Shown here: piece after piece, positions 19,512 to 19,961 of the stretch
Position numbering within the stretch: the first letter of the stretch is position 1
Layout of the letters: every line of letters begins with the position of its first letter
Virus record (IMG/VR): IMGVR_UViG_2541047903_000005
DNA: 20,599 bases
Reading direction: 5' to 3' (one strand)
Source: a virus
Lineage: Duplodnaviria; Heunggongvirae; Uroviricota; Caudoviricetes
Made by a program: the position numbers and the translations under genes
Notes under the pieces: generated by a model
What the model was told of the DNA's origin: nothing
The model's database searches: none
Seen by the model: only the letters and a program-made list of their open reading frames with translations

Positions 19512-19536
19512 AAAAAAGGGAGCGCTCAGGCTCCCC
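19512..19536 (-). terminator. Intrinsic terminator for the minus-strand YkgJ-like gene
   Basis: Minus strand reads GGGGAGC-ctgagc-GCTCCC followed by TTTTTTT (the + strand A-run at 19511-19517). Confidence 0.55.
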
Positions 19537-19628
19537 AATCGGAAGAAATCGCTTGAAACGACAAGCTTGTTGTTACGCCCTCTAAGAATGTTATATAAAA
19601 CATGCCATTGCCGTGATTATGATCGCGT

Positions 19629-19961
19629 TTAATAAAGAGGGGGTAGCCCATATTTTGCACGAGCGCGGTTGCATGCTTCATTCACGATGCCGTGTTCTCC
19701 GGACATCGGAAATTCTCTGCAGGTGGATGAGCGATGTTCATAAATGCTGCAGTAGGCATTGACTCCCGGTTGGCCGATCAGGGCCACACAGCGAGGATTT
19801 TTCTGGTTAGTGCCCTGCATGCATTGATGGTAGGGAGAGATTTGTTCTGTCATCGTTACGGGGATGGTGCCGCCAGCATCATCTGTTTCAACCCAGTAAA
19901 AAGAGACGCGGAAAAATGCACAACAGGCACCACACGTCATACATGGATTAGGATTGTTCAT
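19629..19961 (-). CDS. ykgJ: YkgJ-family protein with CxxCxxCC putative zinc/iron-chelating domain (UPF0153)
   Basis: 110 aa; N-terminal CMTCGACC motif plus further Cys residues; family assignment from recalled motif knowledge, not a search; own terminator downstream. Confidence 0.7.

Follow-up and report, generated by a model that had tools for sequence, protein, structure and literature searches.

The analysed DNA is a viral stretch of 20,599 nt, referred to below as the window, and its upstream genes encode a lambda-type head and tail, with a tape measure protein, J, Lom and the N-terminal domain of a tail fibre. The late strand closes with two small + strand genes. The penultimate one (18927-19205, 92 aa; phrog_1361, E 2.5e-39) is annotated as "hypothetical protein" in the CE10, CFT073, ABU 83972 and GN04275 prophages, and the last one (19215-19511) encodes 98 aa (phrog_1443, E 4e-44). 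A prophage-internal spacer of 117 nt (19512-19628) separates it from a convergent, minus-strand ykgJ-like gene (19629-19961), whose product of 110 aa is a CxxCxxCC cysteine-cluster protein (PF03692/UPF0153, E 6e-12). This gene is followed by an AT-rich divergent intergenic region of 197 nt (19962-20158, GC 0.264) and by a + strand gene of the VapA/VapB family (20159-20599), which encodes 146 aa, or 150 aa from an alternative start at 20147 (PF05526, E 5.3e-34), and with whose stop codon the window ends. The G + C content changes in steps: it is 0.557 in the late region, falls to 0.495 in the ykgJ-like gene and to 0.264 between the two cargo genes, and then amounts to 0.39 for vapA and 0.33 for the right arm beyond the window.

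E. coli O7:K1 CE10 carries a prophage collinear with the window, the identity being 99.7% over positions 1-16670 and 100% over 18000-20599; on the CE10 side, L001 2238-21500 corresponds to the window at 99.7-100%, the insertion sequence aside. The single difference between the two is a 1331-bp IS3-family element at 16671-18001, which is complete, bounded by a 5-bp duplication (CAAGT), and splits the tail-fibre gene that runs from 15531 onward and resumes at 18002-18930. The ends of the element presumably resemble those of IS2, and identical copies of it are found on many plasmids. With its tail-fibre gene split, this prophage copy probably does not make normal side tail fibres and is probably defective, so that for this copy the description as cargo of a mobile phage is probably historical. 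The nearest match to the whole window in RefSeq is isolate AF57, in which the right end and the host flank are the same as in CE10.

The ykgJ-like transcript has an intrinsic terminator at 19536-19517 on the minus strand (GGGGAGC-CUGAGC-GCUCCCU then U7), about 90 nt downstream of the stop codon of the gene. Its 7-bp stem has five G-C pairs, its loop measures 6 nt and seven T come after the stem; the MFE is -12.3 kcal/mol. On the + strand, no T-run follows the hairpin (19517-19536), and it therefore terminates the ykgJ-like transcript only. The gene is read against the late operon, and its transcript is predicted to end at 19536-19517. The terminator would prevent cargo transcripts from extending in antisense through the tail genes, while Q-antiterminated late transcription could pass the hairpin because of the missing + strand T-run. 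Terminator-like sites are about three times more frequent in the region 19100-20599 than in shuffled sequences (4 found vs 1.4 expected). Another short palindrome, GCTTGAAACGACAAGC (19551-19566), precedes the main terminator, downstream of the ykgJ-like stop codon, and it was scored as terminator-like on both strands in the scan.

The promoter scan revealed no consensus sigma-70 promoter in 19962-20158, and a relaxed scan gave weak candidates only, such as TATAAT at 20109-20104 with a poor -35 element. A search for LexA boxes (CTGT-N8-ACAG, at most one mismatch) found none between ykgJ and vapA and none in the right arm; the one match to the pattern falls inside the vapA coding sequence. A putative SOS box noted on inspection of the CE10 right arm (ACTGTATAAAAAATCAT) was discarded, as neither the alignment with the Sakai promoter nor the pattern search supported it. 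Likewise, Rfam searches at E<=0.1 over the region from ykgJ to attR returned nothing.

The product of 19629-19961 passes the gathering cutoff of Pfam PF03692 with 46.5 bits (cutoff 23) and carries an N-terminal motif C7-x2-C10-x2-C13-C14. In an alignment of 62 homologues, C7, C10, C13, C14 and C81 are invariant and C58, C71 and C97 nearly so, and all of them are present in the window protein. It is 80% identical over its full length to YkgJ (b0288) of K-12, the chromosomal ykgJ being a separate locus with a DNA identity of 75-77% to the window gene; the DNA homology is limited to the coding sequence and ends at the ATG. The comparison of the two genes gave a dN/dS of 0.07 at a dS of about 2, at which synonymous sites are saturated, and shows, at the level of codons, an intact small protein under strong purifying selection. 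Judged by this divergence, the ykgJ-like gene is an old, functional paralogue of the chromosomal ykgJ, neither a recent capture nor a decaying copy. The AF2 model of the protein is confident, with a pLDDT of 81.6. A Foldseek search of this model against the PDB gave no match with E<1, and a sequence search of solved structures found nothing meaningful and no solved relative, so no function was drawn from the structure. The protein may bind metal (Fe-S or Zn) and might duplicate or modify the cellular role of the host YkgJ in a lysogen. Filamentation in biofilms is the sole phenotype reported for ykgJ b0288 (PMC8743551).

The assignment of the second cargo protein to PF05526 is well above the threshold (118 bits vs a gathering cutoff of 25), and the PGAP name agrees with the family. 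The protein also matches the solved beta-barrels of the Vap proteins of Rhodococcus equi, best VapG (5aeo, E 6.9e-24), with VapB and VapD as well (all three within E 7e-24 to 4e-20). To our knowledge, it is the only Vap-family protein known in E. coli. Neither cargo protein had a match in NCBIfam, PHROGs or PADLOC, the last of which includes no known defence-system model matched by either of them. The VapA-like gene is absent from 50,697 phage records, and in deposited phage records ykgJ occurs only as remnants or as one distant full-length copy. A Vap homologue from E. coli appears already in the list of Whittingham et al. 2014 (PMC4118825), according to whom the homologues outside Rhodococcus are single genes, are not encoded on plasmids and have no signal peptide.

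The right end of the prophage was delimited in genomes in which the junction is visible. The CE10 prophage is inserted in the 3' end of ompW. The order on its left side is yciC, a 90-nt ykgJ-family remnant, complete ompW, integrase and excisionase, and that on its right side is tail fibre, two small genes, the ykgJ-like gene, the VapA/VapB-family gene, a 126-nt remnant of the ompW 3' end and yciE. The junction was located by aligning the K-12 attB with the CE10 attL and attR. The attL sequence tracks the host up to CAGTGTGGTACATGGATATCGATACCAC and then continues as a diverged, phage-supplied ompW end, while attR is unrelated to the host up to the core CAGTGTGGTACATGGATATCGATACCAC and follows the host sequence thereafter through the ompW terminator. 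The crossover lies in the att core CAGTGTGGTACATGGATAT at CE10 L001 21956, equivalent to window position 21055 and thus about 455 nt past the window end. The two copies of this common core, in attL (CE10 L002, about 13030) and in attR (L001 21956), are both outside 19512-19628. Moreover, when a query running from ykgJ to yciE was compared with prophage-free genomes (K-12, HB101 and many others), the match began only at query position 1543, that is L001 21955 or window-equivalent 21054, and these genomes contain no counterpart of 19512-20599 at the ompW locus.

An earlier note on this DNA had read the local layout correctly: the + strand phage genes end at 19511 with the phrog_1443 gene, a minus-strand YkgJ-family gene follows 117 nt later, and this gene has a terminator of its own. 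Its remark that no att repeat could be found inside the window also agrees with the present results, attL and attR both lying outside. The prophage-host junction, for which it had considered 19512-19628 the probable place, has to be moved. In every identical-sequence genome examined attR was found about 455 nt past 20599, a result that the earlier note itself had named as speaking against its placement, and in the comparison with prophage-free genomes, which it had proposed as a check, the K-12-type match begins at the ompW att core and does not include 19512-19628. For the source of the window itself, the same position of attR would follow from the 100% identity of its last 2600 nt to genomes in which the junction is visible.

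An 11-mer, CTCTGCAAAAC, occurs in three tandem copies beside int (L002 13148-13182) and once at L001 21825-21835. The single copy in the right arm lies 120 nt left of the attR core, and no further exact copy was found in 81.5 kb. This distribution is the pattern expected for an integrase with an arm-binding domain, and the copies are likely candidates for the arm-type integrase sites of the phage attP. The predicted attP would read ...ATCTACC-(overlap)-CATGGATATCGATACCACGGCTAAG..., and the excised circle would include both cargo genes, ykgJ-like and VapA-like.

The final 1,500 nt of the window were found, with a coverage of at least 80%, in 98 complete E. coli genomes out of 5,426. The prophage end ...TTTTTTATAATCTACC is identical in 11 loci and is followed by five different sequences, namely two ompW alleles, an ompW-like variant next to trpA, ycjO and focD/sfaF. 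The right end, comprising the ykgJ-like gene, the VapA-like gene and about 455 nt ending in ...ATCTACC, thus abuts at least four different host contexts. GN04275, with its insertion at the ycjO site, is the sole secondary-site genome checked at both ends: its integrase (WP_000113674.1) is identical to that of CE10, and its attL and attR form a clean pair with a common CGGTCTGGTA. By the structure of these ends, the insertion is an ordinary integrase-mediated event at a secondary site. The shared end, the candidate arm sites and the secondary sites together indicate that the DNA from int to ...ATCTACC, including 19512-20599, is one phage genome. The suggestion of the earlier note, made as a hedge, that the ykgJ-like gene is itself cargo has accordingly been borne out, since this gene and the AT-rich VapA/VapB-family ORF go with the prophage to at least four chromosomal contexts. 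The carriers examined are mostly human extraintestinal isolates (CE10 from meningitis, ABU 83972 and bloodstream isolates).

Some details of the secondary sites were also recorded. Both prophage ends of GN04275 are in ycjO (L005 7528-7600, L010 18700-19240). The PGAP annotation of a "342-nt OmpW fragment" at the left prophage end of this genome was considered as carried host ompW DNA and rejected, because the alignment resolved it into ycjO 5' DNA and the 121-nt ompW-like end of the phage. In ABU 83972 (L006 6940-7010), the right end abuts the F1C fimbrial usher gene focD/sfaF, which is without its N-terminus. The cores of the secondary sites resemble C[A/G]GT[C/G]TGGTA.

The spacer 19512-19628 is 100% identical in CE10 and six other genomes, in which the same prophage DNA always comes after it, and it is absent from prophage-free genomes. 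Prophages of the CFT073 type follow the window at about 97% identity as far as 19475 and diverge from there, which places a mosaic breakpoint between the tail module and the cargo slot near 19475, inside the 3' end of 19215-19511. Beyond this point the relatives carry different genes. In CFT073, the slot is filled by tail-fibre-assembly remnants and by a gene for a SAM-dependent methyltransferase, after which comes attR, at the pot locus beside potB. The slot of VT1-Sakai, whose attR is in yehV, contains a 66-aa ykgJ remnant and dinI, annotated with an SOS box and a promoter, and that of PPompW_12E129 contains nleC and dinI. Beside yecD, an E. coli prophage has dinI, DUF5339 and a full-length ykgJ that converges on the tail fibre gene, and a Salmonella prophage end has a convergent ykgJ in the same layout. 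As the cargo varies among relatives, 19512-19628 is the joint of a conserved late module and a hypervariable slot.

The ykgJ-like gene with its terminator very probably forms the left part of a variable cargo ('moron') region at the right end of an ompW-type lambda-like prophage, and 19512-19628 is an internal joint of this prophage, not attR. Three of the features by which morons are recognised were found: the region lies inside the prophage between the structural module and att and is mobile with the phage, it is replaced among otherwise collinear relatives (CFT073, Sakai, PPompW_12E129), and it has its own terminator on the minus strand at 19536-19517. The reconstructed order past the spacer would be the ykgJ-like gene, the divergent VapA-like gene, about 455 nt with a dinI remnant and a candidate arm-type site, and then the att core. 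It is an ordinary moron region of a known prophage type.

The arrangement of the cargo can be compared with that in related phages. In CE10, a dinI remnant on the minus strand (L001 21641-21766) is situated beyond the window, between the VapA-like gene and the att core. Its position on the far side of vapA speaks for a secondary insertion of the VapA-like cassette into an older dinI-ykgJ operon. The intergenic region 19962-20158 has no similarity to the region upstream of ykgJ in K-12 or Sakai, and the Sakai-type phages keep a K-12-like upstream region together with the first ~93 nt of ykgJ. We infer that 19962-20158 is the left part of the VapA-like insertion, standing in place of the native ykgJ upstream region. 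To judge from the relatives, the ancestral right end would have been an SOS-type operon, dinI to ykgJ to terminator, as in VT1-Sakai. An AT-rich VapA-like cassette (~19962 to window-equivalent 20750) would then have been inserted between dinI and ykgJ, truncating dinI and cutting ykgJ off from its original promoter. A split dinI-ykgJ operon is thus probably the origin of the present layout, and the ykgJ-like gene may be poorly expressed after the insertion. The segment L001 21641-21778, ~140-280 nt past the window end, holds a 33-codon ORF in addition to the dinI-like remnant.

Genes of the ykgJ family also occur beside the attachment gene of the phage in other genera. In Salmonella (L021 3026-5174) and in Klebsiella-like genomes (L023/L024), an orthologue of 134-137 aa lies between ompW and yciC, and in E. 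coli CE10 (L002 12177-12266) a 90-nt C-terminal remnant is left at this position. At the K-12 ykgJ locus, a degraded, frameshifted dinI-like pseudogene (L007 2328-2446; tblastn E 6e-5) is located between ykgJ and ecpE. It is directly upstream of b0288, mirrors the dinI-ykgJ unit of the right ends of Stx phages and overlaps the region that Nakamura et al. name as the source of attB-in-PP_2. A tblastn search of the K-12 ykgJ locus with late-gene proteins revealed no further phage remnants. Taken as sequence comparisons, these data suggest that genes have passed between the surroundings of ompW, lambdoid phages and the ecp locus.

A more specific history would make the ykgJ-like cargo a fossil of a specialised-transduction-type (lambda-gal-like) capture by an ompW-integrating phage, after which dinI-ykgJ spread through phage right ends, b0288 arose at the ecp locus as a domesticated prophage remnant and the original on the ompW side decayed. 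The native gene adjoining ompW in Salmonella and Klebsiella-like genomes and its remnant in E. coli fit such a capture, as do the dinI pseudogene upstream of b0288, the occurrence of short YkgJ forms at prophage tail ends in E. coli and Salmonella, and the orientation of the prophage ykgJ relative to the ompW att core, which is that of the ancestral locus. However, a capture of the lambda-gal type would put ompW 5' DNA in the P arm, and the actual arm is not ompW-like and carries the candidate arm-type site. The neighbour-joining tree of the 110-aa protein does not resolve the direction of transfer and does not clearly unite the short forms in one clade, Citrobacter has a short form in a non-phage context, and with dS saturated the timing of a capture is not recoverable. 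Nakamura et al. read the shared sequence as having passed from the chromosome to the phage, possibly several times (PMC8112680). We consider this specific capture history unlikely. The presence of ykgJ beside ompW in other Enterobacteriaceae offers a testable account of gene flow between chromosome and phage and opens no major question.

It is less probable still that the ykgJ-like and VapA-like genes, instead of being two unrelated passengers, form one co-functional module for lysogenic conversion or defence, read divergently from the AT-rich region. The two genes share the 197-nt divergent intergenic region and are always adjacent, both in the 98 complete genomes with the segment and in every locus that was read, and the largely extraintestinal origin of the examined carriers could be seen in the same light. 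This constant linkage may, however, reflect one recent clonal prophage lineage. The two genes differ sharply in G + C content (0.495 vs 0.39), many relatives have ykgJ but no vapA at the prophage end, the dinI remnant beyond vapA speaks for a secondary insertion, and PADLOC recognised nothing in the pair. That attR lies within 19512-19628 after all, with the ykgJ-like gene and the AT-rich ORF as host flank, is hardly credible: the strand switch, the terminator and the drop in G + C after 19511 lend it an appearance of plausibility, as does the existence of a chromosomal ykgJ in E. coli, which makes a YkgJ-family gene look host-like, but that ykgJ lies elsewhere and is only 75-77% identical in DNA, 19512-20599 is without a counterpart beside ompW in prophage-free genomes, the ykgJ-vapA segment accompanies the prophage in no fewer than four host contexts, and the att core and candidate arm-type sites are further right than 19628.

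With the segment read as the cargo region of a prophage, both genes become candidates for lysogenic conversion, present in about 2% of complete E. coli genomes. Delimiting the prophage from the window alone would lose about 1.5 kb of phage DNA, comprising two intact cargo genes and the P arm.

Among known systems, the right-end morons of lambda (lom, stf/tfa and the b region) offer a close general model. They share with the region described here autonomous genes between the tail genes and att, a terminator of their own, a different base composition and presence/absence variation; the difference is that the ykgJ-like gene has weak promoter candidates only. With respect to K-12 YkgJ (b0288), the window protein has kept the family-conserved cysteines along with the 80% full-length identity, but it is encoded at another locus with other flanks, and the dS of about 2 marks it as an old paralogue. 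The likeness to the Vap proteins of Rhodococcus equi (VapA/B/D/G) consists in the beta-barrel core and in a Gly-rich C-terminus ending in Trp, whereas the window gene is single and prophage-borne.

Just inside attR, the right end of the Stx1 phage VT1-Sakai (Sp15, AP000400) carries H0002, annotated as 'similar to E. coli K12 YkgJ', and H0001 (DinI) with an SOS box, so that in both phages a YkgJ homologue, in Sakai in a dinI-ykgJ unit, is encoded opposite the late genes between the tail-fibre genes and attR; the DNA identity is 83% over window positions 19859-19952. In Sakai, however, ykgJ is the 66-aa remnant with its K-12-like upstream region, and dinI is intact, adjacent and preceded by an annotated LexA box, while in the window ykgJ is full length, the dinI remnant is displaced by the VapA-like insertion and no LexA box was found. 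In terms of the Sakai operon, the place immediately upstream of ykgJ that dinI would hold on the same strand is thus taken by the VapA-like gene, and the upstream LexA box is missing.

The prophage type itself corresponds to the PPompW prophages with a 121-bp ompW att, described together with ykgJ/ecpE-derived sequences in lambdoid prophages (Nakamura et al. 2021, PLoS Pathog 17:e1009073; PMC8112680). Like these, the present prophage is lambda-like, inserted in the 3' end of ompW and supplied with a diverged ompW-like end of ~121 bp, features found in CE10 and AF57, its nearest relatives, and members of this type are often defective. The published STEC/EPEC prophages carry T3SS effector loci and attB-in-PP sites, whereas the extraintestinal lineage described here carries ykgJ and a Vap-like gene, without the ykgJ/ecpE intergenic sequence that gives attB-in-PP_2.
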